Virus record (IMG/VR): IMGVR_UViG_3300042363_000209
DNA: 64,000 nt
Source: a virus
Taxonomy: Duplodnaviria; Heunggongvirae; Uroviricota; Caudoviricetes
Strand: one strand, 5' to 3'
A program made the position numbers and the translations under genes. Shown one piece after another: positions 1 through 14,323 of this stretch; the first letter of the stretch is position 1, and every line of letters begins with the position of its first letter. Below the pieces are notes generated by a model. It was not told where the DNA came from, did not search any database, and saw only the letters and a list, made by a program, of their open reading frames with translations.

Positions 1-3000
1 TCAGGAACTAGTGGGTCTTCAGGCTCATCTGGAACATCAGCAATAGATGGCACATCTGGAACTAGTGGAACTAGTGGAACCAGTGGTGCTGATGGTAGTA
101 ATGGTACATCTGGTTCATCAGGTACTTCTGGAGAAACAGGTGACCAATTTGCAACAACTTCTACTACATCGTTTACATTAGGTAGTAATGGAGCCATTGT
201 TGTAGGAACACAACTTGCATATACAGTAGCTCAATCTATTGTAATAGCTTATGATATAAACAACTTCCAAGAATGTGAAGTGGTATCTTATAACCCAGCT
301 ACTGGTGGATTAATTTTTGGCACTCCAACTAGAACAGTTGGTAGTGGTACATATACAAGCTGGATAGTTAACTTAGACGGTGCTTCTGGAGGAGATGGTT
401 CTTCTGGAACATCTGGCACTACTGGAACTTCAGGATCTTCTGGGACTAGTGGTTCTTCTGGAACTGCTGGAACAACAGGAACCAGTGGTACAAGTGGCAC
501 GACTGGAACAAGTGGTTCTAGTGGTACATCTGCAATTGATGGAACTAGCGGTACAAGTGGCACAACTGGAACTAGTGGAACAGCTGGTACAAGTGGAACA
601 TCAGCTATTGATGGAACATCTGGTACAACTGGAACCTCAGGAACTAGTGGCACAACAGGTACAAGCGGTACATCTGGTTCAAGTGGAACATCTGCTACCA
701 ATGGTACAGGTGGTACTAGTGGATCAAGTGGAACAAGTGGCACATCAGGAATTGATGGTACAAGTGGATCTAGTGGAACTACAGGAACAAGTGGAACCTC
801 AGGTTCTTCTGCAACTAGTGGAACATCTGGTTCAACAGGTACATCTGGAACTAGTGGAACAAGCGGCTCTTCAGGAACTGCTGGTACTACTGGTACCTCA
901 GGAACTTCTGCAATAGATGGAACAAGTGGAACATCTGGTACCACTGGTACGTCAGGTAGTGGTGGTACTTCAGGTACCTCAGGTACAACTGGTATAGATG
1001 GTACTAACGGAACTTCTGGCACAACTGGTACTAGTGGTACTAGTGGGTCAACAGGTACGTCTGGCACAAGTGGAACATCTGGTGTAGACGGAACAAGTGG
1101 TACCTCAGGTACAAGTGGAACTTCTGGTACAAGTGCTATTGATGGCACAAGTGGTACTAGTGGAACAACTGGTACAAGTGGTACTAGTGGAACTAGCGGT
1201 ACTAATGGTACTGGTGGAACTAGTGGAACTAGTGGATCTACAGGTACTTCAGGCTCTAGTGGAACTACTGGTACAAGTGGATCATCTGGTACAAGTGGTA
1301 GTTCTGGATCTAGTGGAACTAATGGAACTGGTGGCACTTCAGGTACAACAGGAACAAGTGGTTCTAGTGGAACTAATGGAACTGGTGGAACTAGTGGTAC
1401 ATCAGGATCTAGCGGTACAACTGGAACTTCAGGAAGCTCAGGTACAAGTGGAACAACTGGTACAAGTGGTTCTACAGGAACTAGTGGTACGTCTGGTACA
1501 ACAGGAACTAGTGGATCTAGCGGAACAAGTGGAACAAGTGGTACTTCAGGTACGGCTGGTACATCAGGTATAAATGGTATATCTGGAGGACTTGTATACT
1601 ATCTAAATCAATCATTAAATACAAATACGGCTTTTGGTACTCCTACTTATAAACAATTTTCATCAACTGCTACAGGTGGTGCAGAACAAACTGTAGTTAC
1701 AAATATAGCGGCAGACACAAGAACATTAATTGCAACTTTTGCAACTGATAGTGGTGTACCAAATATAACAAATATACCTTCAGGTCTTTGGGCTTTCGTA
1801 ACACACCTTTCAATTGATACAAATAGAAATGTTGCAGTAGATGTAGAATTATACAAGTATACAACTGGTGGTGTTTCTACTCTTTTAGGAACTACAAACA
1901 TTGATACAGAATCAATGAGCAATGGTGTTATTAAAGAATTTTTTACAGATTTATTTTTGCCACAAACCACATTAAATGCAACAGATAGACTTTATTGTCA
2001 AATTTATGTTGAATTTACTGGTGGTGGTGCTAATCATAATATAACTTTTTATACAGAGGGTACGAGTAACTACTCATACGCTCAAACAACATTCAATGCT
2101 CCTTCAGGAACATCAGGTACCACTGGAACAAGTGGAACTGATGGATCTTCAGGAACTTCTGGTACATCAGGAACAAGCGGTACCACTGGTACTTCAGGTT
2201 CAACTGGTACAAGTGGAAGCTCTGGTACAACAGGTACATCTGGCTCTTCTGGTACATCTGGTTCATCTGCAACTTCTGGTACCACTGGTACATCAGGAAG
2301 TTCAGGAACTAATGGAACTGGAGGTACCTCTGGTACAAGTGGAACTTCAGGTTCTAGTGGTACTAATGGAACTGGTGGTACAAGTGGAACAAGTGGCACA
2401 ACTGGAACCAGTGGTACAACAGGTACTAGTGGAACTAGTGCAACAAGTGGTACATCAGGTACCACAGGAACATCAGGATCTTCTGGTGTTAGTGGTAGTA
2501 ATGGAACTAGTGGTACGTCAGCAACTTCAGGAACTTCAGCTACTAATGGAACTGGCGGTACTTCAGGTACTACTGGAACATCAGGCTCTTCAGGCTCTTC
2601 AGGTACTAATGGTACAGGTGGTACATCTGGAACTAATGGTACAGGAGGAACTTCTGGAACAACTGGAACCTCAGGCACATCTGGTATAAACGGTACATCT
2701 GGCACAACAGGAACAAGTGGAACTAGTGGAATAAACGGTACATCAGGTACAACTGGTACCTCTGGCACTTCTGGTGTTAATGGATCAAATGGTACTTCTG
2801 GAACTACAGGAACTAGCGGTTCTTCTGGCACTGCTGGTACATCAGGTATTAATGGTACATCAGGTACCACTGGCACAAGCGGTACTACTGGTACCTCTGG
2901 AACAAGTGGATCAAGTGGTATTAATGGTACATCTGGAACTGCTGGTACAACTGGTACTAGTGGTACATCAGGAGCTGCAGGATCTCCAGGAGCTCCTGGA

Positions 3001-5868
3001 ACTAATGGTACATCTGGATCTTCTGGATCTAGTGGTGTGAATGTTGGTTCTAGTGCTGTTATTATTGCTGGTACAGGGACTGCTTCATCTGTTAGATGTG
3101 GTGCTTCAAACACTGCTTCAGGAAATTGTAGTTCTGTATTAGGTGGTGCTGGTAACACAGGTGATTTTGCATATTCATTTATTGGTGGTGGTTGTCAAAA
3201 CCATGCTTCAGGTAACTTCCATGGAACTATTGTTAATGGACAAGGTAACTGTACTAATGCAAATTATAATTTTATAGGTAATGGATTAAATAACGTAGCC
3301 TCAGGTACACAATATAATACAGTTGTAAATGGAGCATCTAACACTGCAAGTGGAGATTATGCTTTTATAGGAAATGGTTTTGGTAATAGTGCTGCTGGAC
3401 AATGTTCATTTGTTGGAAGTGGAACTTTTAATGGAGCTAATGGAACATCTGGTGTGGTAGTTGGTGGTCAAAATAACTCTGCTAATGGATCATTTTCAGC
3501 AGTATTAGGAGGTTGTGGTAATACTGCAATGGGAGCATATTCTGGTGTATTTGGATGTGGTTTATCAAACAGTTTATCATGTTCATTCATGGCTAACTGC
3601 TTTGTACAACCTAATTTAAGTAATGCAATGATAGGTGGATGTGCTGTATGTGCAGGACCTTTGGGTGAGCTTATTGCTTACACTGCTTCAAGTGGAGGTG
3701 GTGTAATGGTTGCTGGTAGTGCTCCTGGTTCAATTCAAGGTAATGGATTTTCTAACACAGCAAGTGGATATTGTTCTAGTGCTTTAAGTGGTACTACCAA
3801 TGCTAGTTCTAGCAACGGATCAGTTATTACTGGTGGTGGATTCAACAGTAACTCTGGAATGTATTCATTCATTGGAGGAGGTTTCTTTAACAATGTAATT
3901 TCTGCAAGCTGTTCAGTTATTAGTGGTGGTAATAACAACTGTGTTTGTTCATCTAGTTCAACAATATCTGGTGGTGTATTTAACAAAATATTATCAAGTA
4001 CAAACTGTTCTACAATTAGTGGTGGTGCATGTAATATTATTTGTACTAATTCTGCTGGTAATTTAATTGCTGGTGGTAAGTCTAACACTGTTAGTAGTTA
4101 TGCCAGCTGTAATGTAATTGGAGGCGGTGATATCAACATGATTGGAACAGGTTCAACACATGGTGTAATTGCTGGTGGTACTTTTCATAATATTGGTAAT
4201 TACTCAGGTAACAATGTTATATCTGGAGGATTTATGAATAACATTGGCAGTAATGGTACTAGTGGTACTATATCTGGAGGAAGCATGAATACTATTAGTG
4301 GATATGTAACTGGTGCAACTATAACTGGAGGACAGGGTAATTTTGCTACTGCAAACTATTCAACTGTATCTGGATGTGGTTTAATGAATTCATTAGCATG
4401 TACACACATGGTTAATGATTTAGCAATCACTTCATTTGCTCCATACGTTGGAATGGGTTGTAGTATAAGCTTTGATGGCTTTGGTAAATTATGTTTAACT
4501 GCTGGTGGTGGTGGTGGATCAAGCATTATGGTACTAGGAATGGGAGCTGGTTCTACAGAAAGATGTGGTAACTTTAACACGACAGGAGGTACTAACTCTG
4601 GAGCGTTAAGTGGTTTCTTTAACAATGCAGGTGGAAGTTCGTCAGTAATTGCTGGTGGTGAAGCAAATAACAATAGTGCAGCTTGTTCATTTATTGGAGG
4701 TGGATTTAATAATTTTACGGCTAGTAGTTATCCTTTTAATAATATTGGGATGACAATTGGTGGTGGTGTTAATAATAAAGTGTGCGTTAGTTATGGAACA
4801 ATAGGTGGAGGATGTTGTAATACTATTGGAGCTTCAGGAAGTTCAGGGTTTTCTACTATTGGTGGTGGAAAGCTTAATAATGCAAATGGAGATTATTCAA
4901 CAGTTAGTGGTGGATATTCTAACAGTGCTTCAGCTTACTTTACCTTTATTGGTGGTGGACGATCCAATGGAGCATTTGCTGAAGGTGCTGCAGTTGCTAG
5001 TGGTTTTTATAATAACGCTATGAGCTGCCGTTCTTTTGTTGGTGGTGGTGAAATGAATATGGCTAGTGCATGTAGTTCTGCTATTATAGGAGGTACTATG
5101 AATAATGCAGGTGGTAATTGTTCAGTTATTGTAGGAGGTTCTGGTAACACGACTAGCAGTGCATATTATGCTAGCTTCCCTAGTTATGGTTTCATTGGAG
5201 GTGGACAAACCAATTGTAATTATGGTGGTTGGGGTTTCATTGGAGGTGGTAGTAACAATACTATAGCTGGAGGTAATATGTTTAGTAGTAGTATGAAGTC
5301 AGGTATTCTTGCTGGATATCAAAACTATGTAAGTTCAGAAATGAGTGGTATTCTTGCTGGACAATCTAACAACGCAATGGCTGCAGCTTCTGCTGTTACT
5401 GGTGGTTGTTTCAACATGAGTATGGGAATAGGAAGTGTTGTAAGTGGATGTCAGATAATGTCAACAGACTCATTTGTAAATCATGCTAGTTGTTTCAAGG
5501 CTGCTAATTTAAATCCAGGAGGTGCAATTTGTGCAAATGCTACTGGAATGATTGTTTTAAATACATCTGATGCTAGATTAAAGTGTTGCATTCAACCTGT
5601 TGGATATCAGCTTTGTGATGTTAGCAAATTAGTTCCTTCATTCTATGAATTCAATAGTGCTAATAAAGCTAATGGAGAAGGAAAACAAGTAGGATTCATT
5701 GCTCAACAAGTTAAAGACGTAGTACCTGAATCAGTAAAAATGACCTTTAGTGGATACTACTCATTTGATTCATCAAAACTAATACCTATTTTAACCAAGG
5801 GTGTGCAAATTTTGATATCTTGTGTAGATTCATTAACTTTACAGTTAGAAGAATTAAGAAATAAATAA
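1..5868 (+). CDS. Collagen-like tail fiber/receptor-binding protein, 5'-partial. Frame 1 is open from base 1 with no stop before the GTG at 280. It has two Gly-X-Y tracts (mostly G-T-S/G-T-T triplets) around a ~170-aa globular insert, a long Cys-rich glycine beta-roll repeat region, and a C-terminal intramolecular chaperone/auto-processing (S74-like) domain.
   Basis: Translation from nt 1 gives SGTSGSSGSSGTSAIDG..., so the ORF extends upstream of the window. There are hundreds of uninterrupted GXY triplets. Residues ~926-1740 carry repeats of the form GGxxNxASGxxSxIGGG (YadA-head/beta-roll-like). The C-terminus ...KQVGFIAQQVKDVVPESVK... matches the conserved motif of endosialidase/T5 L-shaped-fiber C-terminal chaperone domains. 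Confidence 0.8.
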   Translation, partial: SGTSGSSGSSGTSAIDGTSGTSGTSGTSGADGSNGTSGSSGTSGETGDQFATTSTTSFTLGSNGAIVVGTQLAYTVAQSIVIAYDINNFQECEVVSYNPATGGLIFGTPTRTVGSGTYTSWIVNLDGASGGDGSSGTSGTTGTSGSSGTSGSSGTAGTTGTSGTSGTTGTSGSSGTSAIDGTSGTSGTTGTSGTAGTSGTSAIDGTSGTTGTSGTSGTTGTSGTSGSSGTSATNGTGGTSGSSGTSGTSGIDGTSGSSGTTGTSGTSGSSATSGTSGSTGTSGTSGTSGSSGTAGTTGTSGTSAIDGTSGTSGTTGTSGSGGTSGTSGTTGIDGTNGTSGTTGTSGTSGSTGTSGTSGTSGVDGTSGTSGTSGTSGTSAIDGTSGTSGTTGTSGTSGTSGTNGTGGTSGTSGSTGTSGSSGTTGTSGSSGTSGSSGSSGTNGTGGTSGTTGTSGSSGTNGTGGTSGTSGSSGTTGTSGSSGTSGTTGTSGSTGTSGTSGTTGTSGSSGTSGTSGTSGTAGTSGINGISGGLVYYLNQSLNTNTAFGTPTYKQFSSTATGGAEQTVVTNIAADTRTLIATFATDSGVPNITNIPSGLWAFVTHLSIDTNRNVAVDVELYKYTTGGVSTLLGTTNIDTESMSNGVIKEFFTDLFLPQTTLNATDRLYCQIYVEFTGGGANHNITFYTEGTSNYSYAQTTFNAPSGTSGTTGTSGTDGSSGTSGTSGTSGTTGTSGSTGTSGSSGTTGTSGSSGTSGSSATSGTTGTSGSSGTNGTGGTSGTSGTSGSSGTNGTGGTSGTSGTTGTSGTTGTSGTSATSGTSGTTGTSGSSGVSGSNGTSGTSATSGTSATNGTGGTSGTTGTSGSSGSSGTNGTGGTSGTNGTGGTSGTTGTSGTSGINGTSGTTGTSGTSGINGTSGTTGTSGTSGVNGSNGTSGTTGTSGSSGTAGTSGINGTSGTTGTSGTTGTSGTSGSSGINGTSGTAGTTGTSGTSGAAGSPGAPGTNGTSGSSGSSGVNVGSSAVIIAGTGTASSVRCGASNTASGNCSSVLGGAGNTGDFAYSFIGGGCQNHASGNFHGTIVNGQGNCTNANYNFIGNGLNNVASGTQYNTVVNGASNTASGDYAFIGNGFGNSAAGQCSFVGSGTFNGANGTSGVVVGGQNNSANGSFSAVLGGCGNTAMGAYSGVFGCGLSNSLSCSFMANCFVQPNLSNAMIGGCAVCAGPLGELIAYTASSGGGVMVAGSAPGSIQGNGFSNTASGYCSSALSGTTNASSSNGSVITGGGFNSNSGMYSFIGGGFFNNVISASCSVISGGNNNCVCSSSSTISGGVFNKILSSTNCSTISGGACNIICTNSAGNLIAGGKSNTVSSYASCNVIGGGDINMIGTGSTHGVIAGGTFHNIGNYSGNNVISGGFMNNIGSNGTSGTISGGSMNTISGYVTGATITGGQGNFATANYSTVSGCGLMNSLACTHMVNDLAITSFAPYVGMGCSISFDGFGKLCLTAGGGGGSSIMVLGMGAGSTERCGNFNTTGGTNSGALSGFFNNAGGSSSVIAGGEANNNSAACSFIGGGFNNFTASSYPFNNIGMTIGGGVNNKVCVSYGTIGGGCCNTIGASGSSGFSTIGGGKLNNANGDYSTVSGGYSNSASAYFTFIGGGRSNGAFAEGAAVASGFYNNAMSCRSFVGGGEMNMASACSSAIIGGTMNNAGGNCSVIVGGSGNTTSSAYYASFPSYGFIGGGQTNCNYGGWGFIGGGSNNTIAGGNMFSSSMKSGILAGYQNYVSSEMSGILAGQSNNAMAAASAVTGGCFNMSMGIGSVVSGCQIMSTDSFVNHASCFKAANLNPGGAICANATGMIVLNTSDARLKCCIQPVGYQLCDVSKLVPSFYEFNSANKANGEGKQVGFIAQQVKDVVPESVKMTFSGYYSFDSSKLIPILTKGVQILISCVDSLTLQLEELRNK

Positions 5869-5897
5869 TTTAAAAAACAAAAATAAAAAATAAAGTT

Positions 5898-6242
5898 ATG
5901 TTAGTAGCTAAAATTAGTCCAAGTGCATCTTTCTCTGAAAAAGATGAGAACCCATTCAGTTCTGCAACAGTTGCATCATTTGATCACTTAGGAGTGATTG
6001 GTGTAAACTATATTCCAGGAAATGAAAAACATGAGTTTGTAGTTGTTTATGGCAACATCAAAAATGTAAATGATGTAGATTATTTACAGAGAGCTCCTCA
6101 ACGTACACAACTTGTGTTAACTGCTGCAGAAGTAGCTAACTGGGGTACAAACGATGAAGAGTTGTTTCAAATTGTTGCAGCTAAATTAGGAACATCTGTA
6201 GTGGAGTTCAAAGAAGTTAGCAATAACCTTAATGTATTGTAA
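5898..6242 (+). CDS. Hypothetical protein (114 aa), immediately downstream of the fiber gene
   Basis: Complete ORF with the same upstream context AAAATAAAGTTATG as the gene at 18928. No recognisable motif. Confidence 0.5.
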   Translation: MLVAKISPSASFSEKDENPFSSATVASFDHLGVIGVNYIPGNEKHEFVVVYGNIKNVNDVDYLQRAPQRTQLVLTAAEVANWGTNDEELFQIVAAKLGTSVVEFKEVSNNLNVL

Positions 6243-6269
6243 TATTAATTTAAGGTGAAGTAATAAAAA

Positions 6270-6297
6270 AAGCCCAGTTAATTCTGGGCTTTTTTGT
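6270..6297. terminator. Bidirectional rho-independent terminator between converging fiber (+) and decoration (-) operons
   Basis: Hairpin AGCCCAG-TTAATT-CTGGGCT preceded by an A-run and followed by TTTTTTG. Confidence 0.7.
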
Positions 6298-6301
6298 TTT
6301 A

Positions 6302-7123
6302 TTATTTACTATATCTAAATGTGTCATAGAACCATTTGTAATTGGTATAGATCCAATCTGTTACGTCCTTACCTAATAACTCTTTGGCTTTACTTCTTAC
6401 AGGTTCAAGTTTTGTACGAATAACGTGATCACCAAATGCACCGTACACTTCATCATCTTCTTTAGTTACTTGCTCAATGTGATCAAAGTCATGTTGATAA
6501 TATGTTAATCCTAGATATTCATATATCTTAATCATTGTAGTATCTGGATATAAACATAAGTCTTCAAACTTTACAAATAACATTTTGTTATTAATTCCTG
6601 TTCTAAATATCTCACTAAGTCTTTCAAGAGCAAGTCCTACAGGAGGTTGTGATGCCCATATGTCTATACGCTTAGGTACAGTGGTTCCTTGTCCTTTAGC
6701 CCAATCTAAAATATCAGATTGCTTCTCTGGATGTTTTCTAAAGTTACCTTCCATAGATGCAAATACATCACGTAAGTCTCTCACCATACAAATGATTTTT
6801 GGTTCTTCATTGTGTACAAACTGTAAGAAATCATAGTGTATGCCCCAACCTCTGCTTTTATCTATAACATATTTCTTATCTGTAATAGCATTGTAGAAAG
6901 CATCCATACCAGATTTAGCAAATGCTTGCCATCCTTTTTTCATAAGTTCAGCATCTTGAGCTTTAAACTCAGTAGAGTTAGTGTAATTAGCACGTGCTCC
7001 AAATATTAATTCAAGTACACCAGACGTAGGTGTAGCATATATATCAGGGTTCTGTGCAAGAATGTTTTGTAACAATGTAGATCCTGACCTAGGTAAAGAA
7101 CTTTGATAGAATATTTTTTCCAT
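6302..7123 (-). CDS. Sulfotransferase-family protein (PAPS-dependent)
   Basis: N-terminal 5'-PSB-like P-loop (SSLPRSGSTLLQNIL), size 273 aa, and an adjacent APS-kinase-like gene. Confidence 0.6.
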   Translation of the reverse strand: MEKIFYQSSLPRSGSTLLQNILAQNPDIYATPTSGVLELIFGARANYTNSTEFKAQDAELMKKGWQAFAKSGMDAFYNAITDKKYVIDKSRGWGIHYDFLQFVHNEEPKIICMVRDLRDVFASMEGNFRKHPEKQSDILDWAKGQGTTVPKRIDIWASQPPVGLALERLSEIFRTGINNKMLFVKFEDLCLYPDTTMIKIYEYLGLTYYQHDFDHIEQVTKEDDEVYGAFGDHVIRTKLEPVRSKAKELLGKDVTDWIYTNYKWFYDTFRYSK

Positions 7124-7989
7124 TATTTTAAAGATTTAATTACATTGTTTATATTAAACATTTCAGACTCATTATTGTAAGGAAACTCTATAAGCTCACC
7201 TGATATATTATATTTGTTCAAATAAGAGTTTCTTAGTTCAGAGGAACTTGTTTCTGGATTAGCTGTAATGTTTGTATGAATATCATATCCAAATACATTA
7301 GGAACATTTACAACCCATAGTACAGTGGATGGTTTATTCAAAGCAGCTGCAGCATGTTGACCAAAGCTATCCATCATTAATCTTTTATCACTTATACTTA
7401 TAAGTACAAGAAGTGCTCTGAATGTATCAGTTACAGGAAATGTACCTTCATAATTTATTTGATCTTCTCTTCTTATGTGAACAATATTATACTGTTCTTT
7501 AAATTCATGTATAACATTCTCCACCACATAACTAGGAATATCTCTAGCCCATGAGTATTTAACATCAGATTCAGTCCCACCATTTGTTTGTAGTAGCAAA
7601 ATAGGTTTATCAGATATGAACTTCTTACTAAAGAAATCTATTTCTCTTTTTGTAAGAAATAATTCTCCAACAGTTTTAGTTACAGGTAAGTCATATAGCT
7701 TACACCAAGTTTCAATAAGATGTTCTTCTTGTTTGATGTGCTTTGTTTCTAGATAAGGATCATGTGCAAACAATATAATCTCTTGATTCTCAATGTACTC
7801 CTTATAGAAATAAGCTTGTTGACCAAAGCCATAAGCTCTATCCACATTAGGATTACCTAAAAATACATCTGGATAACCAGAGACAACAATCAGTTTACAA
7901 TCAGGGTACTTAGTTTTTATTGAAGCACACACAGCTGTGGAGGCAATCACCTTGCCTATACCACCATTAATTTGAAATATTATATTCAT
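7123..7989 (-). CDS. GT9-like glycosyltransferase (heptosyltransferase family)
   Basis: N-terminus NIIFQINGGIGKVIASTAVCASIKTKYPDCKLIVV resembles the GT9 'ILIIRxxxIGDVIxxTP' signature. The start overlaps the upstream gene (ATGA-type coupling). Confidence 0.5.
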   Translation of the reverse strand: MNIIFQINGGIGKVIASTAVCASIKTKYPDCKLIVVSGYPDVFLGNPNVDRAYGFGQQAYFYKEYIENQEIILFAHDPYLETKHIKQEEHLIETWCKLYDLPVTKTVGELFLTKREIDFFSKKFISDKPILLLQTNGGTESDVKYSWARDIPSYVVENVIHEFKEQYNIVHIRREDQINYEGTFPVTDTFRALLVLISISDKRLMMDSFGQHAAAALNKPSTVLWVVNVPNVFGYDIHTNITANPETSSSELRNSYLNKYNISGELIEFPYNNESEMFNINNVIKSLK

Positions 7990-8372
7990 AGTTTACCTTC
8001 TTTTTTCATTTGTTCTCTAATTTGTGTAGCAGATATATCATGTATCTCTTGTGGTGGTACATGTTCAACGACATCATAACCCACCCCTCTTCCAAAGTTT
8101 ATAGACTCAATATCAGGGATAATTATAAGTCTCACCTTACCTTCTTCAATTAAATCATTTAATGCTTCTGCTAAGTTCATCATGATTTGATACGCAGACC
8201 ATGGATTCTTTTCATCCTCTTTAACATCTCTTACACATAGCAACACCTTCTTTCCCTGGTTCAATTGTTGATCAATTAACCATCTGTGACCAGCGTGCCA
8301 TGGTTGCCATCTTCCTATGAACATTGCATACCCATCCGTCTTACGGTTTCCCTCAGCTAAAATATTCTGCAT
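7986..8372 (-). CDS. Small HxGH nucleotidyltransferase (cytidylyl/adenylyl-transferase-like, TagD/HldE-domain-II class), 128 aa
   Basis: Motif FIGRWQPWHAGH equals the (F/G)xFDxxHxGH signature. The C-terminal ISATQIREQM resembles TagD ISTTKIKEEI. Length equals a minimal CTP_transf_like domain. Confidence 0.6.
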   Translation of the reverse strand: MQNILAEGNRKTDGYAMFIGRWQPWHAGHRWLIDQQLNQGKKVLLCVRDVKEDEKNPWSAYQIMMNLAEALNDLIEEGKVRLIIIPDIESINFGRGVGYDVVEHVPPQEIHDISATQIREQMKKEGKL

Positions 8373-8794
8373 ATACGCTTGATTTTATCTAAACTGTCTT
8401 CAATAGAAGTGTTAGAAGTGTTAATAATTAAATCTACATTATCCATGTGAGGAACTTCAAAGTCTTTCACTTTAAAGTCATCTCTACCTCTATCTTCTTC
8501 ATAGATGAGATATATCCATTTGACATCTCTAGTTAGTTTATTAAGATGTTCTCTAGCTTCTTCATAAGGATACACTAGTGATAACACTATGTTATAGTTT
8601 TTAGCTTTATTTAAATAGTGTGCTATATCACTGGCTCTGTTTAAGTTCTTAATCCTACCTTCTCTACTGTAGTCTTTATTCTTAAACATATCTCTTAATT
8701 CATCACCATCTATGTGATGAAATCCCTCTGCTATAAATTTTTTAGCAAGGGTTGTTTTACCTGATGCAGGTTGACCAAATAATACTATTATCAT
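8357..8794 (-). CDS. Adenylylsulfate (APS) kinase-like P-loop kinase
   Basis: Walker A VLFGQPASGKTTLAKK, followed by IDGDELRDMF...SREGRIKNLNRASDIAHYL. This parallels CysC LDGDNVRHGL...EDRAENIRRVGEVAKLF. Confidence 0.6.
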   Translation of the reverse strand: MIIVLFGQPASGKTTLAKKFIAEGFHHIDGDELRDMFKNKDYSREGRIKNLNRASDIAHYLNKAKNYNIVLSLVYPYEEAREHLNKLTRDVKWIYLIYEEDRGRDDFKVKDFEVPHMDNVDLIINTSNTSIEDSLDKIKRICRIF

Positions 8795-11700
8795 AGTAAG
8801 TGTTTTATTTTATTAATTACTGTTTCTGCAGATATACCTTTATGACATTCAAATTGTCTGTCAGTTCCTTTATGTACAGGACACCAATCCCAATCACCTT
8901 TGTCAAACTTAAAGTTAGGATTGTTCCAACAACCATGACATAAGTTTGTATCTGTAATTCTTAAACAATTAGATTGAAACTCATGATCTGCTTCTGTAAA
9001 GTTACTAATCATTACAGTTTGCTTACCCATCATCCAAGCTAACCAGCTCAGTCCTGAGCTTAATCCTATAAAGAACTTACTATTCCAGATCATATTGATA
9101 GTGTTATCCATAGAAGTATCTTCTATCTGTGTACAGTTATCAAATGGATTTTTTTCTTTAGATACATTGTACACCTTGTATCCATGATCAACTAGATAGT
9201 TAATCAAAGCCTGCCAACCTTGCTTGGTCCAGAACTTACATCCTGATGTACTGTTTGTAGCAATAGTTACAAATGTATCTTTACCACTAAATTTAACTGG
9301 TTCATAAGCAAATCTAGGTCTAATCTCTTTCCATTCTAATCCTAGTATGTTAGTAGCTGCTTTCTGTAAAGGAATAGTGTTACACAACACAGGTTCTTTA
9401 TCTTTACCGTATCTCCAGCCAACAATGTACTGACCATGAATATTACCCACTACACTTCCTGGAGTGATAAACTCAAGCTCTGGATACGCTTTCTCAAACA
9501 AGAAATTCTTATATGTGCTCACTACAACATGACAGTTGTGTTTCTTTCTGAATTCATTGCAATACGGTATCCAGGCAATAGTATCACCTAATGATTGACT
9601 ATCTATACAGATGTATACACGCTTACCTTCATAGTTTAACGTTTCTTCAAAGATGAGTTCTCCATCTTCCCATACCATAGCTGTCCACTTGGTAAACCAT
9701 TGTCTATTTAACTTAACCCAACGGTTGCTAGTAATTGTATTTTCATAATGGCAAACCCCTTTCTCATCAAAGAATTTGATTAAGAAGTTACTATCACTGT
9801 TTCCTGTAATTTCTAAGGTGGGACTCTCTACAAATAACAAAGATATATTCACCTTTGTTTTCTTCTTTTTTCTAGGAACAATGGGTATATCAAGTGTTTT
9901 GTTATACAAGTGTAAATGATTTTGTGCAAATCTGTTATCTGGTATGTCATGAAAAACAACACCAACAGGATATTTTTCATTCACTTCATCTAAATCACTA
10001 TCTATAGGTAGGATGTATCTAGTAAACATATCTTCATACTGAGGAAGATTTCTAGCTACTACAGGAAGTGCATAGCTGATCGCTTCTCTAAGTACAAGAG
10101 GATTACATTCCCATGTGCTGTTAAACATGAATATGTCTGCAGCTTTTAAGAATATATCTACATCATTTCTCTCTCCCCATATCTTTACATTCTTTGGTAA
10201 GTTTTCCATCAACGGTTCCCAGTAGTCTTTAAAGTTGGGGGCTTGATTACCTACAAAATGGAAGTCCATACTAGGATATTTTCTAGCTATCTCTATTCCT
10301 TCTTTCTGATTCTTTCCTGGAGTCCACAGTCCTACGTTTACAACATTAGGTCTGTTCAGATTAAATCCTAACTCATCTTTAGCATCCACTTTATGTACAA
10401 TACTTGGTCTCTTATCTTCTATAGGGAATTCAATTACATCTTTATAAGCCTTCATGTTAGCAAATGTCTTATAATGATATGGTGTACAGAAAGCATAAGC
10501 TTCTGGTTCATACTTCTTAAGTTCGTCAGGATTAAACCAAACGTTATGACATGTCTCAACTATTCTCCAGGTTCTATCAGGAGCATACAATGCATCTAAT
10601 AACTGAGGGCTTATTTGATTAAAACTCTCAAACCCTTCTAACATTTCTTCTACATGTACAACATCAATGCTATTCTTTTTGATGATGTCAATGAGCTCCA
10701 TCTTGTTTTCTCCTAGTGTAAACATCCTGTTTTCAGGCAATAGCTTTTTGATTTCATTCTTCTGTACAACATACACAGGACTGAAGTCAGAGTACTCCAC
10801 TACATAAATTCGTACGAAATGTTGTAGTTCTTGCACTCTTTTTAGGAGGAAACCAGGCATACCACCTGTAGATAAGTGAGGAGCTAAGAACAATACACTT
10901 AGTTGTTTCTCTGCACTCTCTAGAGTTTGTATCATCTTATTCATCACCTTTGGATCTTTCTCTCCATGTAAGAATAATAACTTATGTTTATTATCTGGTA
11001 ATCTTGACCAGCTTCCGTGGTGCTTCCCCCACTCAAGCTTATCGTAGATGTCTTCTATTCTATCTAGGCTAGCATTGGTGTAGATGTAAGGTAGGCCATC
11101 TAACACTCCCCACTTCCACAATAACACGTTAGCTATTGTTTCTTCATGGTATGGAGCATACCACTCATGGTTAGCCATCACTTTAGGATGAGTACACATC
11201 CAGTACCACTCATCTAAGAAATCAAAGCAGTAATGGTTGGCTACAAAATAACCTGTTTGTCTATATCTCTGTCTAACATATTGATTGACACCAAACAATT
11301 CACATGCTGGTGCTTCTAATGTTGTAGACATATCTTCTCTAGTATCAGCCCCACCTCTACCATTGATGTGTAGATAGTCATAAATACCCTCTACAAAATA
11401 GGGATAGTTCATTTTAGGATACATATCAAAGATGCTATCAACATATTCTGTGGCTACACTATCAGAGTCTATATAAGCTACTGTATGAGCACAGTTTAAT
11501 AGAGCATCTTTAACAATCATTGGACGTTCTATCAACAGTCTATAAACATTCTTATCACTTCTATCAATGTATTTGTTGATAGAAAGCTTTGGTAGATTAG
11601 ACTTCCACATAATTGTTGTAGCACCAGGAATATCTGCAATAGTATCTAATAAATATACGTAGATGGGAAGCTCGCTATATCTTCTTATAGAAGCTACACA

Positions 11701-12288
11701 AGCTTTAACGGTAGGAACATAAGATGCATTTGCATATAAAACGTACGCTTTTTCAGCTTTTATATGCTTATTCGTATAATACCCATACAAATGATTACTG
11801 TAAAGTTCAACTAGCTGGGGGTATCTAGTCTTCATTACCCTGTGAGTTAGGTCTTCCTGGAGATGGGTTTCGTATGTATTACCATACTCTTCACCATCTT
11901 GAGCCATCATATATGGTACAGCCACTAAACATTCTTTGCCTGCATCTGTTATATCTGTAATAAGCTTCTGACCTTCTTCAGCTGTAAGATGTTCTAGTAT
12001 ATCTCCTAGGATGATGTAGTCATATTCTGACCAGTCAAACTCACGGATGTCTGCATTGTGTACTGTTCCGTACCAATCTTTCAGTTTGAATTCTTCAATG
12101 TAAGGGGCCCAAGCTTCAACAGCATCTATATCATAACCAATATCTTCTAAAAGCTTAGCATAAGTACCCTGTCCAGGACCAACATCTAATATCTTTTTAT
12201 GTGTAGGAACATGATGTTCAAAGTATTTCTTAATCTCAGGTTTGTAAAAAGTATAACTATTTGGCATAATGCTGGTTATTTTGAACAA
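8791..12288 (-). CDS. Giant multidomain decoration enzyme (1165 aa). N-terminal class-I SAM methyltransferase, followed by GT-A (GT8-like DxD), GT-B (GT4-like) and a C-terminal GT9-like domain.
   Basis: Four domain signatures in order: SAM motif I ILDVGPGQGTYAKLL; a DxD motif, AYIDSDSV; a GT-B region, FMFNSTWECNPLVLREAISYALPVVARN; and a C-terminal CHGCWNNP... segment with GT9-like layout. Confidence 0.55.
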   Translation of the reverse strand: MFKITSIMPNSYTFYKPEIKKYFEHHVPTHKKILDVGPGQGTYAKLLEDIGYDIDAVEAWAPYIEEFKLKDWYGTVHNADIREFDWSEYDYIILGDILEHLTAEEGQKLITDITDAGKECLVAVPYMMAQDGEEYGNTYETHLQEDLTHRVMKTRYPQLVELYSNHLYGYYTNKHIKAEKAYVLYANASYVPTVKACVASIRRYSELPIYVYLLDTIADIPGATTIMWKSNLPKLSINKYIDRSDKNVYRLLIERPMIVKDALLNCAHTVAYIDSDSVATEYVDSIFDMYPKMNYPYFVEGIYDYLHINGRGGADTREDMSTTLEAPACELFGVNQYVRQRYRQTGYFVANHYCFDFLDEWYWMCTHPKVMANHEWYAPYHEETIANVLLWKWGVLDGLPYIYTNASLDRIEDIYDKLEWGKHHGSWSRLPDNKHKLLFLHGEKDPKVMNKMIQTLESAEKQLSVLFLAPHLSTGGMPGFLLKRVQELQHFVRIYVVEYSDFSPVYVVQKNEIKKLLPENRMFTLGENKMELIDIIKKNSIDVVHVEEMLEGFESFNQISPQLLDALYAPDRTWRIVETCHNVWFNPDELKKYEPEAYAFCTPYHYKTFANMKAYKDVIEFPIEDKRPSIVHKVDAKDELGFNLNRPNVVNVGLWTPGKNQKEGIEIARKYPSMDFHFVGNQAPNFKDYWEPLMENLPKNVKIWGERNDVDIFLKAADIFMFNSTWECNPLVLREAISYALPVVARNLPQYEDMFTRYILPIDSDLDEVNEKYPVGVVFHDIPDNRFAQNHLHLYNKTLDIPIVPRKKKKTKVNISLLFVESPTLEITGNSDSNFLIKFFDEKGVCHYENTITSNRWVKLNRQWFTKWTAMVWEDGELIFEETLNYEGKRVYICIDSQSLGDTIAWIPYCNEFRKKHNCHVVVSTYKNFLFEKAYPELEFITPGSVVGNIHGQYIVGWRYGKDKEPVLCNTIPLQKAATNILGLEWKEIRPRFAYEPVKFSGKDTFVTIATNSTSGCKFWTKQGWQALINYLVDHGYKVYNVSKEKNPFDNCTQIEDTSMDNTINMIWNSKFFIGLSSGLSWLAWMMGKQTVMISNFTEADHEFQSNCLRITDTNLCHGCWNNPNFKFDKGDWDWCPVHKGTDRQFECHKGISAETVINKIKHLL

Positions 12289-12326
12289 AATTAGTATATT
12301 TGTTGTAAATAAACAACAAAATTTTT

Positions 12327-12695
12327 ATGCAAATAGAAGTAAGTATTGGGGAAGTTGTGGACAAATGGACCATCCTTTCCATCAAGGCTTTGAACATTAC
12401 AGACAAAGACAAACTTAAGAACGTTTTTGTTGAGAAAAACTACTTAAATACAGTGATTGACCCTGAAATTCTACACGATCCACTAGTAGATGATCTACTT
12501 AAGACAAACAAAGCTCTTTGGGATGTGGAAGACTTGCTCAGAGACTTTGAAAGAGCTGGTAGTTTTGGCCCAGAATTTGTTGATCTGGCTAGGTCAGTGT
12601 ACAAATTGAATGATAAAAGAGCACATATTAAAAAAGAAATTAATATCAAGTACTTCTCTGAGTTTGTAGAGGAGAAATCATACAACCCTTACTAA
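12327..12695 (+). CDS. Hypothetical protein (122 aa); first gene of the rightward block after a divergent AT-rich promoter gap
   Basis: Complete ORF with no motif. Confidence 0.45.
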   Translation: MQIEVSIGEVVDKWTILSIKALNITDKDKLKNVFVEKNYLNTVIDPEILHDPLVDDLLKTNKALWDVEDLLRDFERAGSFGPEFVDLARSVYKLNDKRAHIKKEINIKYFSEFVEEKSYNPY

Positions 12696-12731
12696 AAAAA
12701 GATTTGGTTATATCAAATCTTTTACATAGTT

Positions 12732-12950
12732 TTGCTCATACATATGCCATTGGTAAAGAGACACATAGCTAAGACTATTAGCTATAGAATAATCAGCACC
12801 GTAATAGGTTTCCTAATAATGTGGTGGATCAGTGATTCTATCAAGGTGGGGGCTGCCTTTGGGGTAGCTGAGCTTATCTACAAGCCTGTTCAATACTATC
12901 TTCACGAACGTTTCTGGTACAAGTGGATTAAGTACGGATTGAAGAAATAA
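12732..12950 (+). CDS. Small membrane protein (one TM)
   Basis: Hydrophobic stretch IISTVIGFLIMWWI. Confidence 0.4.
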   Translation: MLIHMPLVKRHIAKTISYRIISTVIGFLIMWWISDSIKVGAAFGVAELIYKPVQYYLHERFWYKWIKYGLKK

Positions 12951-13026
12951 AATTTTATTTATAAACTACATAGAATGATCTTCTCCCAAATAGGGGGACA
13001 GGCATTCTATTTTCTATTTTTAAAAA

Positions 13027-13332
13027 ATGACAACAAAACAAGAAAATTCTTCTATTGCAACATTTAAAGTTTGGATATTTCCAAGCTTAGTATCAATAGT
13101 TAGTCTTCTAATCTGGAATGATGTTAATGAAATCAAGTCTGATGTAAAGATGTTGATGGCTCAATCTAATGTAGACAAGACACGTATTGATAATTTAGAA
13201 AGAGTAGTTTATAATAAAACAGCATCTCTTCCCTTTGATTTACCTAGTACAGACTTAGAAATGGAAAGCTATGCTATTCTACCTAACAAAAAAACAATTA
13301 AAAATAAAAAATATGAAGAAATTCTTTTCTGA
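13027..13332 (+). CDS. Hypothetical protein with N-terminal TM
   Basis: ORF with hydrophobic segment WIFPSLVSIVSLLIW. Confidence 0.4.
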   Translation: MTTKQENSSIATFKVWIFPSLVSIVSLLIWNDVNEIKSDVKMLMAQSNVDKTRIDNLERVVYNKTASLPFDLPSTDLEMESYAILPNKKTIKNKKYEEILF

Positions 13333-13564
13333 TTTATTTGATGACAGCAACTCAATCAATGAGAAGGCTGTAATTGGCTTTGCTTCTTTTGTAATCATGA
13401 TAATATTTGCTTTGACAGATATTGTTACAGGGGCTATGAATAAACCGTTGTTAGTTAATGAGTTCATATATGACTCATTTAAAATCTTGACTATAGCTTG
13501 TTTTGGTATTGCTTCTATAGATAAATTTATTAATAAGAGAAACCAAACTGAAGATAATGAATAA
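13313..13564 (+). CDS. Hypothetical membrane protein (start moved to internal ATG MKKFF..)
   Basis: Using the upstream ATG at 13271 would overlap the previous gene by 62 nt. The ATG at 13313 leaves a 20-nt overlap. Carries a TM segment. Confidence 0.35.
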   Translation: MKKFFSDLFDDSNSINEKAVIGFASFVIMIIFALTDIVTGAMNKPLLVNEFIYDSFKILTIACFGIASIDKFINKRNQTEDNE

Positions 13565-14156
13565 ACTACTTAGTGTTGTAATTGTTGTTTTACTAGCATT
13601 TATATTTTTTCAAAATGATGGGTGCACTTACATAGACAAAAAGTCTGAAATAGTAACTGTACATGACACTACTTGGCAGGTTCATGACTCATTGATTGTT
13701 AAGAAGATAAAGATCAAAGAGACAATACATGACACTATTGCCACTCCTCCAGAATATATAGCAGACACAAACTATTTAACTCTTAAGCTTCAGTATGAAG
13801 CGTTAGTATCAGATTTTTTAGCTAAGAATGTTTATGCTGACACAGTGAAGTTGGATACATTAGGTTATGTAGCTGTAGCTGATACAGTGTATAAAAATGA
13901 ATTACTAAATAGATCTTATAAATACAACTATAAGGTTCCTACAGTCACTGTAACAACCACCATTACTAAGTATGCTCCTAATAAAGGTGCTCTATTTATA
14001 GGGGGGGGTATTGCAAGTGATAGGAATAGTTTGAATATTTTACAAGGAGGGCTATTGTATAAATCTAAAAAAGATAAAATATTTGGATTAAATATTGGAA
14101 TCAACAATAATAGTCAAGTTATATATGGTTTTCAATCATATTGGAAAATTAAATAA
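13557..14156 (+). CDS. Secreted/exported hypothetical protein (signal peptide)
   Basis: N-terminal hydrophobic leader LLSVVIVVLLAFIFF. Confidence 0.45.
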   Translation: MNKLLSVVIVVLLAFIFFQNDGCTYIDKKSEIVTVHDTTWQVHDSLIVKKIKIKETIHDTIATPPEYIADTNYLTLKLQYEALVSDFLAKNVYADTVKLDTLGYVAVADTVYKNELLNRSYKYNYKVPTVTVTTTITKYAPNKGALFIGGGIASDRNSLNILQGGLLYKSKKDKIFGLNIGINNNSQVIYGFQSYWKIK

Positions 14157-14161
14157 AACAC

Positions 14162-14323
14162 ATGAAAAAAATTATTGAACTTGTCAAAAGCCTTTTTGGT
14201 GAAGGCTCTTTTGCTAAAAAACTATTAACTATCAAAAGCTTAGAGAAAGAAGTTAAAGCTGTAGTTAATGGTTCTGAAGAGAAAATAGAAAAAGTTAACT
14301 ATAAAAAGAAAAAGAAAAAATGA
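14162..14323 (+). CDS. Small Lys-rich ORF (53 aa) below the ORF-track threshold
   Basis: An ATG..TGA ORF found by hand-translating the gap. Its stop overlaps the endolysin start (ATGA). Confidence 0.3.
   Translation: MKKIIELVKSLFGEGSFAKKLLTIKSLEKEVKAVVNGSEEKIEKVNYKKKKKK

Follow-up and report, generated by a model that had tools for sequence, protein, structure and literature searches.

Organization of the locus

The stretch of DNA analyzed here (the window) comprises 64,000 nucleotides of a tailed phage (IMG/VR record IMGVR_UViG_3300042363_000209) and opens within a fiber gene of unusual length. The reading frame, frame 1 of the plus strand, runs uninterrupted from nt 1 as far as the stop codon at 5866-5868 (window 1-5868) and encodes the C-terminal 1,955 residues of a protein of 2,081 residues. 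A preliminary description made from the window alone had claimed that the gene runs on upstream. A JGI contig (L001, positions 4104-20345) that is 100% identical to the window confirms this and places the start of the gene 378 nt upstream of the window, the complete gene being L001:3726-9971. In five independent assemblies the fiber gene is base-for-base the same, and it is therefore no artifact of repeat assembly.

Other genes of the window include rIIA/rIIB and genes for RNR, DNA polymerase, terminase, and portal protein, and a second collagen fiber gene adjoins the one described here. The phage has a genome of roughly 110-118 kb, and relatives of its terminase occur in crAss-like phages and in Cellulophaga phage phi17:2. 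Megablast searches with the fiber and 20 kb of the window revealed no nucleotide relatives among deposited phages. A scan of GTDB genomes for the host yielded only distant S74 or head-plus-S74 relatives (≤33% identity), spread over Bacteroidota, Verrucomicrobiota, Planctomycetota, and others, and was uninformative.

The collagen-like stalk and its globular domains

The four structural parts recognized in the preliminary description all hold. The protein begins, upstream of the window, with a globular domain of 67 residues, which is followed by the first of three collagen-like tracts. This tract consists of 36 triplets in the full-length protein and spans the start of the window, where its C-terminal part occupies nt 1-147 (+). 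A second copy of the globular domain follows at 148-378 (+) (window residues 50-126, 77 residues) and is 44% identical to residues 4-70 of the full-length protein. Both the first tract and the 77-residue domain had been overlooked in the preliminary description. The paralogous collagen fiber encoded upstream contains the same globular domain embedded between two collagen tracts. No convincing family assignment was obtained for the domain, and PHROGs hold no family for it. The second tract, at 379-1593 (+), covers residues 127-531 with 135 triplets, no Pro, and six in-register replacements of Gly by Ala, and the third, at 2107-3042 (+), covers residues 703-1014 with 104 triplets and 2 Pro. These are the two long tracts noted earlier on either side of an insert of about 170 residues.

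In all, the stalk contains 275 in-register Gly-X-Y triplets (825 residues) with a composition of 34% Gly, 30% Thr, and 27% Ser. Thr occupies X in 72% and Ser occupies Y in 64% of the triplets. The sole replacements of Gly are the Ala residues at 12 positions, which keep the register. The Gly-X-Y periodicity that defines the Pfam Collagen family (PF01391) extends through all 275 triplets, and the fiber matches the family with an E-value of 1.6e-81. The imino acids and charge pairs that stabilize animal and streptococcal collagens are lacking, as the 825 residues include no more than 2 Pro and hardly any charged side chains. If canonical collagen geometry applies (0.286 nm per residue), the 275 triplets would form a stalk of about 236 nm. 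The near absence of Pro had been pointed out before and regarded as unusual; the first part of that statement stands and the second does not. A scan for the pattern (G-T-[S/T])6 retrieved at least 120 viral contigs, for which the median fraction of Pro is 0, so that Pro-free Thr/Ser collagen is common among uncultured phages. Strict Gly periodicity is likewise found in >40 divergent members of the fiber family and in phages unrelated to it.

The insert between the second and third tracts (YYLNQS...TTFNAPSG; 1594-2106, +) is a non-collagen domain of 171-172 residues (residues 532-702). Its sequence matches nothing in Pfam, PHROG, or the PDB. Its structure model (pLDDT 93) displays a beta-sandwich jelly-roll fold and matches the jelly roll of PepX/CocE and carbohydrate-binding modules (CBMs). 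As modeled, the insert is a jelly roll of the galactose-binding or CBM type, one per chain.

The beta-roll heads

The third collagen tract leads into a head region of 841 residues (residues 1015-1855) composed of 42 turns with the consensus I-G-G-G-x-x-N-x-A-S-G-x-Y-S-F, in good agreement with the roughly 800 residues of head-like repeats reported earlier. Gly is found at position 4 of all 42 turns and Asn at position 7 of 41. Structure prediction, which the preliminary description had proposed as a check, folds the repeats of 14-16 residues into a left-handed parallel beta-roll with a mean pLDDT of 68.8, falling to <50 in the cap region. The turns are grouped into three modules, each closed by a cap, and all three caps can be aligned with those that precede the cleavage site in homologs. 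Module 1, encoded at 3043-3705 (+), has the Cys-rich cap GCGLSNSLSC...GGCAVCAG and ends in a GGG linker, which takes the place expected for an S74 cleavage motif. In module 2, encoded at 3706-4515 (+), the cap begins GCGLMNSLAC and a GGGGG linker forms the end. Module 3 with its cap, encoded at 4516-5565 (+), would become the distal tip after the predicted cleavage. Because modules 1 and 2 keep the pre-cleavage cap and a Gly linker replaces SDxRxK, the triple head probably arose by the joining of complete head-plus-chaperone units followed by loss of the internal chaperones.

The head region contains 36 cysteines compared with 2 in the preceding 1,014 residues. They had been described as lying at recurrent repeat positions, but the alignment of the 42 turns places them only at the variable positions 5, 6, 8, and 10-15; the core positions 1-4, 7, and 9 contain none. 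The cysteines that do recur are those of the caps closing the three modules. A fixed Cys ladder, as in a disulfide stack of the insect-antifreeze type, was considered and rejected on the basis of the same profile alignment, in which no position holds more than 5 Cys and all of these positions are variable.

In Pfam, the head scores 16.1 bits with LbR_Ice_bind, below the cut-off of 30, and does not match YadA_head or UspA1_rep; homologs such as P0010 pass all three models. The fiber has neither the membrane-anchor beta-barrel of the YadA type nor a coiled-coil stalk, its C-terminus being a Peptidase_S74 domain and its stalk collagen. It works like a TAA head and is not itself a TAA. A tblastn search of 50,697 deposited phage genomes with the head module found no relative, which may in part be due to the low-complexity filter, and with the whole head region gave matches at the level of the S74 domain only. 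PHROGs contain no family for the head or the insert, and no paper on beta-roll heads in phage fibers was found in the limited library searched. Within its family the fiber is the hypervariable gene: head identities are 33-50% compared with 71-96% for the neighboring sulfotransferase.

The Peptidase_S74 domain

The last 100 residues, encoded with the stop codon at 5566-5868 (+), form a Peptidase_S74 intramolecular chaperone (PF13884), as had been proposed. The match covers residues 1856-1913 of 1,955 with 39.1 bits (cut-off 22) and an E-value of 9.2e-10. The motif SDARLK (residues 1856-1861) contains Ser1856 (nt 5566-5568) and, five residues further on, Lys1861; neither residue varies across an alignment of 11 sequences, and the motif aligns with ADLRAK in the structure of the MyRF ICA domain (7dc3). 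The predicted autocleavage site is ...VLNT|SDARLK, between Thr1855 and Ser1856. Autoproteolysis had previously been placed near SKLVPSFYEFNS; the site predicted here lies 19-30 residues upstream of that sequence.

The neighboring putative decoration genes

An ORF of 114 residues (5898-6242, +) begins 29 nt downstream of the fiber gene. Its position is kept in several related phages, and it has no convincing family assignment. A hairpin resembling a bidirectional terminator (6266-6295) marks the point at which the fiber unit and a decoration unit on the opposite strand converge. The first gene beyond the hairpin (6302-7123, -) encodes a sulfotransferase (Pfam Sulfotransfer_3 and Sulfotransfer_1) whose nearest NCBIfam model is that of the carbohydrate sulfotransferase NoeE, with a score under the cut-off of the model. 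It is always accompanied by the gene of a 288-residue protein (7123-7989, -) with weak glycosyltransferase-like similarity and no convincing family. The genes of a protein of the adenylyl/cytidylyltransferase family (128 residues; 7986-8372, -) and of an APS-kinase-like P-loop kinase (145 residues; 8357-8794, -) follow.

The largest gene of the unit (8791-12288, -), convergent to the fiber gene, encodes a fusion protein of 1,165 residues. Pfam recognizes a SAM methyltransferase (residues 16-115) and a GT4 glycosyltransferase (residues 637-756). Residues 834-1163 resemble protein O-heptosyltransferases of the TibC/Aah type: the NCBIfam equivalog model TIGR04414 matches with 246.4 bits (cut-off 200; E 4.3e-73) and TibC of the PDB (4rap) with an E-value of 1.9e-45. 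The four iron-finger cysteines (C339, C342, C358, and C370 of TibC) are conserved, CHGCW...WCP...FEC corresponding to CYGCW...WCP...FEC, and are invariant across four phage homologs. By sequence, the C-terminal domain belongs to the BAHT family (Aah/TibC). No paper on TibC-like enzymes of phages was found in the limited library. TibC and Aah are protein O-glycosyltransferases whose genes adjoin that of their repetitive substrate, and the characterized targets are Ser residues in beta-helices, not in collagen (PMC4358343).

Co-occurrence of the TibC-like enzyme with Thr/Ser collagen

Among loci of the family anchored at the sulfotransferase gene, 13 combine the TibC-like gene with Thr/Ser collagen, about 5 non-redundant cases have neither of the two, and no evaluable locus is discordant. 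Shared ancestry and inheritance of the genes as a cassette partly confound this count; in a tree of the neighboring genes, the both-present and both-absent states are interspersed. The TibC-like gene occurs in at least 544 viral contigs. In other phages, 31 loci extend for 8 kb or more to either side of the TibC-like gene, and 25 of them contain a Thr/Ser collagen ORF, which usually lies 0.4-1 kb away in convergent orientation. Most of the loci with collagen have neither a sulfotransferase nor heads. The cultured Microcystis phage Mel-JY01 (PP395634.1, 190 kb) encodes a G/S/T collagen of 202 triplets 1.7 kb from a gene of the same methyltransferase...TibC type. This collagen ORF is missing from the GenBank annotation, which lists antisense ORFs instead. 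Gene callers and GenBank records annotate antisense ORFs in place of such collagen genes, so that fibers of this kind are under-counted.

In the reverse direction, the TibC-like gene was found in 4 of 40 viral loci (~10%) anchored at Thr/Ser collagen and with ≥2 kb downstream, a comparison that is underpowered in that most of the stored stretches end inside the collagen ORF. The enzyme is accordingly no general requirement for Thr/Ser collagens. The sulfation module is distributed differently. It also adjoins collagen-free head-plus-S74 fibers on an unrelated phage contig that has 7 of 37 genes in common with the window, and it tracks adhesin-like heads, not collagen. A link between the Thr/Ser collagen and the adjacent decoration cluster, suggested from the outset, gains support from these data in that the neighbor of the TibC/Aah family co-varies with the collagen.

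Proposed function of the fiber

The ORF probably encodes a very long tail fiber or receptor-binding protein, a homotrimer with an O-glycosylated collagen stalk and an S74 domain that removes itself. From the N- to the C-terminus it would comprise the duplicated globular anchor domain, three collagen segments, the jelly roll, three heads of the UspA1/YadA type whose 42 turns would be about 20 nm long, and the S74 domain. In the proposed order of events, the S74 domains trimerize first and the trimer would nucleate folding of the heads, after which the collagen would zipper from the C- toward the N-terminus. The S74 domain would then excise itself before Ser1856 by means of the Ser1856/Lys1861 dyad, so that the adhesive tip at the distal end would be formed by head module 3. 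Because the collagen is nearly free of Pro and lacks charged pairs, its Ser and Thr residues are probably O-glycosylated, in the cytoplasm, by the convergently encoded methyltransferase-GT4-TibC-like enzyme. In a further step, the sulfotransferase may add sulfate to these glycans together with the kinase, the nucleotidyltransferase, and the 288-residue protein.

The Gly-Thr-Ser tracts could also be read as flexible, mucin-like Ser/Thr spacers, of the bottle-brush kind if glycosylated, that tether the heads without forming a triple helix. The scarcity of Pro and of charged residues fits a spacer, a triple helix of such composition would be poorly stable unless modified, as judged from host-guest propensities, and Thr-rich non-collagen ORFs (20-28% Thr) lie beside the TibC-like gene in some loci devoid of collagen. 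However, nothing would oblige a disordered linker to hold phase, and here Gly recurs with a period of three through 275 triplets with only in-register Ala substitutions, a periodicity shared by the divergent relatives within the family and by unrelated phages. Together with the strong Pfam Collagen match and the flanking domains, which are expected to trimerize, this makes mere spacers quite improbable. Assignment of the protein to the capsid or neck, where it would provide non-specific adherence to particles or mucus in place of receptor binding by the tail, would accommodate the extreme inferred length of about 260 nm and the generic adhesin and CBM types of its domains. It is very unlikely considering that every PHROG family with a match to the collagen or S74 part is a tail-fiber family, that S74 chaperones are typical of tail fibers and spikes, and that the head is hypervariable relative to its neighbors, as expected of a determinant of host range.

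As to the target of the modifying enzymes, phage glycosyltransferases often modify O-antigen, and the glycosyltransferase and sulfation genes might remodel the surface of the host, be it LPS, capsule, or an adhesin of the host, for instance as a means of superinfection exclusion, and accompany the fiber simply as part of a cassette. Cyanophage sulfotransferases annotated without a known target and the low frequency (~10%) of a TibC-like neighbor at Thr/Ser collagen genes are consistent with this possibility. It is nevertheless unlikely, since within the family the presence of the enzyme tracks that of the collagen exactly, collagen genes are neighbors of the enzyme gene in many phages of other kinds and in Mel-JY01, and the fiber and enzyme units converge on one terminator; moreover, TibC/Aah genes encode protein O-glycosyltransferases beside their own repetitive substrate (PMC4358343). 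Glycosylation of the beta-roll heads in place of the collagen, by analogy with the action of TibC on the beta-helix of TibA, is very unlikely. Head-bearing, collagen-free members of the family (L030, L034, L042, L007) are without the enzyme, most TibC-anchored loci have collagen and no detectable heads, and Mel-JY01 combines collagen and enzyme in the absence of heads.

With collagen as the preferred substrate, a more far-reaching proposal can be made, which we consider tentative and somewhat short of an even chance. Several phage lineages would carry a dedicated fiber pathway in which an enzyme of the TibC/Aah family glycosylates Pro-free (Gly-Thr-Ser)n collagen, the sugars replace hydroxyproline as the stabilizer, and a PAPS-dependent sulfotransferase module sulfates the glycans to yield a proteoglycan-like fiber. 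If so, the BAHT family would acquire a new class of substrate and extend from bacterial virulence adhesins to virions, which would be modified in a new way. The co-variation of collagen and TibC-like enzyme offers a testable answer to the question of how Pro-free collagens of phages and bacteria stay stable. Virions that are glycosylated and sulfated would differ in how they recognize receptors, in their stability in the environment, and in their recognition by the immune system, which would therefore bear on the prediction of host range and on phage engineering. In a common family of uncultured phages, heads of the TAA type are the part that is hypervariable and presumably determines host range, and three heads with vestigial chaperone junctions illustrate how fibers may grow by concatenation of modules.

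Comparison with known systems

The fiber is a new combination of known module types and not a new principle. Its heads are closest to that of UspA1 of Moraxella catarrhalis (PDB 3PR7, 3NTN) and to other YadA-like heads (BpaC, EibD, BoaA, YadA). Unlike these proteins, the fiber has no coiled-coil stalk or barrel and is hence not an autotransporter, and it carries three tandem heads with 4.3% Cys, a conserved Cys cap, and an S74 domain after the heads. The S74 domain shares its C-terminal position and the SDxRxK motif with those of the endosialidase tailspikes, the L-shaped fiber protein pb1 of T5, and MyRF, and its model matches the MyRF ICA. In contrast to these proteins, it comes after a left-handed beta-roll head, not after a triple beta-helix or an endosialidase stalk, and the upstream modules 1 and 2 have kept the pre-cleavage cap and lost the chaperone.

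BclA of the Bacillus anthracis exosporium likewise has a Thr-rich, O-glycosylated, collagen-like stalk, and sugar-pathway genes lie nearby. Its repeats are mostly Gly-Pro-Thr, and its globular, trimerizing C-terminal domain is C1q/TNF-like and is not removed. The fiber differs from BclA, which contains Pro and has no beta-roll heads, in being nearly free of Pro and in possessing beta-roll heads and an S74 C-terminus.

Foldseek/BFVD searches with the fiber retrieved, among others, proteins of the collagen-plus-S74 type from Klosneuvirus, Solivirus, and uncultured Caudovirales. Modular fibers with collagen and Peptidase_S74 occur in phages, polinton-like viruses, and giant viruses (PMC12220804); like the fiber described here they are large and modular, contain collagen repeats, and end in an S74 domain. 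No relative of the head module is detectable in any of the 50,697 deposited phage genomes. The collagen protein of Mel-JY01 differs from the fiber in having neither beta-roll heads nor an S74 domain; the corresponding enzyme is also a multidomain protein (1,226 residues), and its TibC-like C-terminus is 40% identical to that encoded in the window.

The genetic arrangement resembles that of AIDA-I/Aah and TibA/TibC of E. coli, in which the gene of a TibC-type enzyme likewise lies beside that of a long, repetitive, Ser-rich adhesin-like protein (PMC4358343). Like Aah and TibC, the phage enzyme would act in the cytoplasm, prior to export or assembly. It differs from them in being encoded by a phage, in being fused to a methyltransferase and a GT4 domain, and in that its presence follows Thr/Ser collagen and not beta-solenoid repeats.

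The fibre and its collagen-like stalk

The fibre gene is open in frame 1 of the plus strand from nt 1 of the window to the stop codon at 5866-5868. Its continuation upstream, as anticipated in the preliminary description, was confirmed with public contigs retrieved by look-up with the small ORF just downstream of the fibre. Over 16,242 bases (4104-20345) the JGI contig L001 is 100% identical to the window; there the gene starts 378 nt further upstream and, when complete (L001:3726-9971), encodes 2,081 aa. Copies of the gene from different samples, three of them complete and two partial, are base-identical, so the length of the fibre is no repeat-assembly artefact. Residue numbers used here are those of the window frame, i.e. 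the full-length number minus 126. The JGI sample numbers of the fibre contigs (L001-L006; 3300042301-3300044535) overlap those of the MAGs ME2018-06-05_3300043470 and ME2000-08-01pf_3300043466 (GTDB matches L161 and L174), which suggests, from the identifiers only, a single freshwater-lake time series.

The full protein contains 36, 135 and 104 Gly-X-Y triplets in three tracts (275 in total; Pfam Collagen, E 1.6e-81). Two tracts had been recognized, and these are present at aa 127-531 and 703-1014, but a first tract at the window edge had been overlooked, and so had the globular domain just C-terminal to it (77 aa, residues 50-126), a duplicate of the N-terminal domain of the protein (44% identity, E 6e-17). 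Gly is replaced at 12 positions, always by Ala and always in register. Thr occupies X in 72% of the triplets and Ser occupies Y in 64%, and with 2 Pro in 825 residues the tracts are indeed made of Thr, Ser and Gly with virtually no Pro. If each residue contributes 0.286 nm, as in canonical collagen geometry, a stalk of 275 triplets would be approximately 236 nm long. The composition is not unusual, as had been thought, but common in viral contigs: a scan with the DNA pattern (G-T-[S/T])6 yielded at least 120 viral loci, and among the matches listed the median was 114 triplets, the maximum 1,017 (in the phage locus L318) and the median Pro fraction 0.

The mid-stalk insert of 172 aa had no match in Pfam, PHROG and PDB sequence searches. 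In the structural model it folds as a jelly roll like that of galactose-binding domains, with one copy in each chain, and it is plausibly a carbohydrate binder. An exhaustive profile-free search found the domain in 1,776 representative proteins (337 with E <=1e-10), often near the N-terminus and in some cases flanked by collagen.

The gene immediately upstream of the fibre gene, beyond the window edge, encodes another Thr/Ser collagen fibre, 1,091 aa long (L001:424-3699). Its N-terminal motif contains Cys (MNVTCSATPCPV...), a copy of the small globular domain is embedded between two collagen tracts, and its Cys-rich C-terminal domain is different from that of the main fibre. The source annotation broke this gene into two, a gene of 620 aa and a spurious antisense ORF of 394 aa. 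Long off-frame or antisense ORFs also occur in the collagen DNA of the window (288-1337 and 2082-3158, minus strand; 380-916 and 1097-1573, plus strand). They are not genes but by-products of the GGN-ACN-WSN periodicity, which can mislead automatic gene callers.

Beta-roll heads and the C-terminal chaperone

Alignment of 42 turns with a profile made from the region gave the consensus I-G-G-G-x-x-N-x-A-S-G-x-Y-S-F; position 4 is Gly in every turn and position 7 is Asn in 41 of them. The only PDB sequence matches with E up to 1 were 3pr7 (E 5.6e-11) and 3ntn (E 7.1e-05), both of the Moraxella UspA1 head and flagged by HMMER for high compositional bias. Many metagenomic homologs contain the Pfam domains LbR_Ice_bind, UspA1_rep and YadA_head together with Peptidase_S74; the head segment of the window stays below the thresholds of these three head families (16 bits vs 30 for LbR_Ice_bind). 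An AlphaFold model of aa 1500-1955 had a mean pLDDT of 68.8, with values mostly of 75-90 at model residues 41-210. Based on the UspA1 matches, the domains of the homologs and the model, the proposed likeness to heads of trimeric autotransporter adhesins holds for the fold but not for an autotransporter identity, as the protein has no membrane anchor.

The cysteines were said to lie at recurrent repeat positions; instead, the 36 Cys have no fixed position but are scattered over variable positions and avoid the conserved core positions, and the conserved Cys of the head region are those of the caps. Three head modules (about aa 1015-1234, 1235-1506 and 1507-1855) each end in a cap with the consensus YSGVFGC...NS..CSF..N.L.ACNL.G...A(I/V)C.....G.LV. 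The cap is followed by SDxRxK in module 3 and in homologs, and by a linker of 3-5 Gly in modules 1 and 2. From this pattern we infer that the triple head probably arose by concatenation of head-cap-chaperone units with loss of the internal chaperones.

The predicted C-terminal S74 domain was found at aa 1856-1913 (Peptidase_S74, 39.1 bits; cut-off 22). Its Ser and Lys, both invariant in an 11-sequence alignment, are provided by SDARLK (1856-1861), which lines up with ADLRAK of the MyRF ICA structure 7dc3. Endosialidase, T5 pb1 and MyRF undergo S74-type self-cleavage, and by analogy the fibre is expected to be cut between Thr1855 and Ser1856. A site near SKLVPSFYEFNS, as suggested previously, does not agree with this position, since SKLVPSFYEFNS lies 19-30 residues downstream.

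The putative decoration cluster

Directly 3' of the fibre, a 114-aa ORF (5898-6242, plus strand) without a match in a search for families may encode a fibre assembly factor; the order fibre, 114-aa ORF, 288-aa gene is kept in several divergent relatives (32-38% identity). The decoration cluster lies downstream on the opposite strand, and fibre and cluster converge on a bidirectional, terminator-like hairpin (6266-6295). Its five genes encode a sulfotransferase (6302-7123), a conserved 288-aa protein (7123-7989), an adenylyl/cytidylyltransferase-family protein, an APS-kinase-like kinase and a 1,165-aa fusion protein (8791-12288). The fusion protein consists of an N-terminal SAM methyltransferase, a GT4 glycosyltransferase in the middle and a C-terminal third that matches the NCBIfam autotransporter strand-loop-strand O-heptosyltransferase Aah/TibC (246 bits vs an equivalog cut-off of 200) and the TibC crystal structure (E 1.9e-45), with all four iron-finger Cys of TibC conserved. 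The kinase (145 aa) and nucleotidyltransferase (128 aa) ORFs (7986-8794, minus strand) share 16 nt. They correspond to the two halves of the 230-residue profile phrog_10255 ('kinase'), a split that the unrelated contig L007 also shows. With the sulfotransferase added, the two could make up a minimal pathway of PAPS synthesis and transfer, although the 128-aa protein is much shorter than known ATP sulfurylases. In many related loci, as here (12327-12695, plus strand), a gene for a DUF6165 protein lies beside that of the glycosyltransferase.

The sulfation module (288-aa protein, sulfotransferase, kinase, nucleotidyltransferase) lies beside head-S74 fibres throughout the family and also in an unrelated phage contig (L007/L008), which has only 7 of 37 genes in common with the window and fibres without collagen. 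The presence of the TibC-like gene tracks that of the collagen. Of the sulfotransferase-anchored loci scorable for both, 13 combine the gene with Thr/Ser collagen and none is discordant. Both are missing from about five non-redundant cases (three in which the fibre is complete and the flanks are full, two in which the fibre is partial, and L007/L008); L021, L033, L063 and L123, apparent exceptions whose fibres extend past the locus end, were left out. In a neighbour-joining tree of adjacent genes the two states are intermixed, which indicates several independent changes. The counts within the family are phylogenetically non-independent.

A TibC-anchored scan yielded 544 or more viral contigs. 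Of the best 80 loci, 44 have an ORF for Thr/Ser collagen (Pro <=3%), as do 25 of the 31 among these with at least 8 kb on either side; in most cases it converges with the enzyme gene at a distance of 0.4-1 kb. The majority of the collagen loci contain neither sulfotransferase nor heads. The suspected link of the Thr/Ser collagen to the adjacent cluster is thus supported within and outside the family by co-occurrence with the TibC-like gene. The L107 locus encodes, next to this gene, a 3,098-aa ORF with 910 Thr/Ser Gly-X-Y triplets (11708-21001, minus strand). Five TibC-positive loci without a collagen ORF in the stretch covered have, a few kb from the enzyme gene, an ORF of 615-1,110 aa in which Thr makes up 20-28% and Cys about 3-4% (L067 825-4076, L069 2475-5789, L080 1084-4023, L104 2036-5365 and L123 4768-6612, all on the minus strand, the neighbouring fibre of L123 extending past the locus end), which may be an alternative Ser/Thr-rich substrate. 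Characterized BAHT enzymes have beta-helices as substrates (PMC4358343).

The TibC-like domain was found in four records of the 50,697 deposited phage genomes. In Microcystis phage Mel-JY01 (L052, PP395634.1) the enzyme gene lies 1.7 kb from a 202-triplet Gly/Ser/Thr collagen ORF (in 1-3052, plus strand, stop-to-stop 2-3049; G 36%, S 32%, T 21%). GenBank has two hypothetical proteins here (CDSs 1-651 and 739-2298, minus strand) with many PEVP/PLVP repeats, which are this ORF read in antisense, and CDS 2519-3052 is its C-terminus; the real fibre gene was left unannotated. A 735-kb phage (two records, LR756501 and LR756503) has a 34-triplet Ser/Thr collagen 5 kb from the TibC-like gene (LR756501), and LR756504 has no collagen within 20 kb of the domain. 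In the reverse test, anchored on the (G-T-[S/T])6 pattern, the TibC-like gene was present in 4 of 40 collagen loci with at least 2 kb downstream, a test of low power because most locus stretches end within the collagen ORF. Since Pro-free collagen is common in the scan and the reverse association is weak, the Thr/Ser composition is typical of uncultured phages and the TibC-like enzyme is not its universal partner.

Phage context and variability of the fibre

The window encodes rIIA/rIIB (rIIB/rIIA-like genes at 30873-34810, minus strand, and 56312-60936, plus strand), ribonucleotide reductase, a UvsX-like recombinase, primase, helicases, DNA polymerase, terminase and portal. A 201-aa ORF (14320-14925, plus strand) with a weak Glyco_hydro_19 match (Pfam) may be an endolysin. 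The nearest terminase is that of Leptolyngbya phage Lbo-JY46 (40%), followed by those of Cellulophaga phages phi17:2 and phi4:1 (33%) and of crAss-like phages; judged by these relatives the host is possibly cyanobacterial or a member of the Bacteroidota. The portal, too, has its relatives in crAss-like phages and Cellulophaga phi17:2.

The sulfotransferase beside the fibre, used as the query of a scan, gave 43 IMG/VR loci from the same family, some on contigs about 110-118 kb long. What varies among them is the fibre gene, whose product ranges from 686 to more than 2,700 aa and has 0-278 collagen triplets and 17-127 beta-roll turns, with the jelly roll present or absent; in some loci the fibre is divided into a collagen gene and a head-S74 gene. 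Head identity is 33-50% compared with 71-96% for the sulfotransferase, the pattern expected of a receptor-binding protein.

Proposed mechanism and relation to known fibres

On the observed domain order, folds, catalytic motif, enzyme family and co-occurrence the following scheme can be built. The S74 domains would trimerize and nucleate the heads, the collagen would zipper from the C- to the N-terminus, and the chaperone would excise itself before Ser1856; the architecture and this chaperone part are probable. The distal head, possibly along with the two proximal heads and the jelly rolls, would bind host surface glycans or proteins. O-glycosylation of the collagen Ser/Thr by the fusion enzyme, which would offset the missing imino acids, is slightly favoured. 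The sulfation module might act on the glycans or the heads, but sulfation of the fibre is a tentative and rather doubtful proposal.

Beta-roll head-S74 proteins are frequent in metagenomes and in Bacteroidota-rich bacterial genomes, and none was detected in deposited phage genomes or PHROGs at BLAST/HMM sensitivity. A limited literature search found no paper on phage TibC-like enzymes, and if confirmed the enzyme-collagen pairing would be new biology. The fibre itself combines known kinds: collagen-S74 proteins also occur in BFVD (Foldseek), and such fibres are known from phages, polinton-like viruses and giant viruses (PMC12220804).
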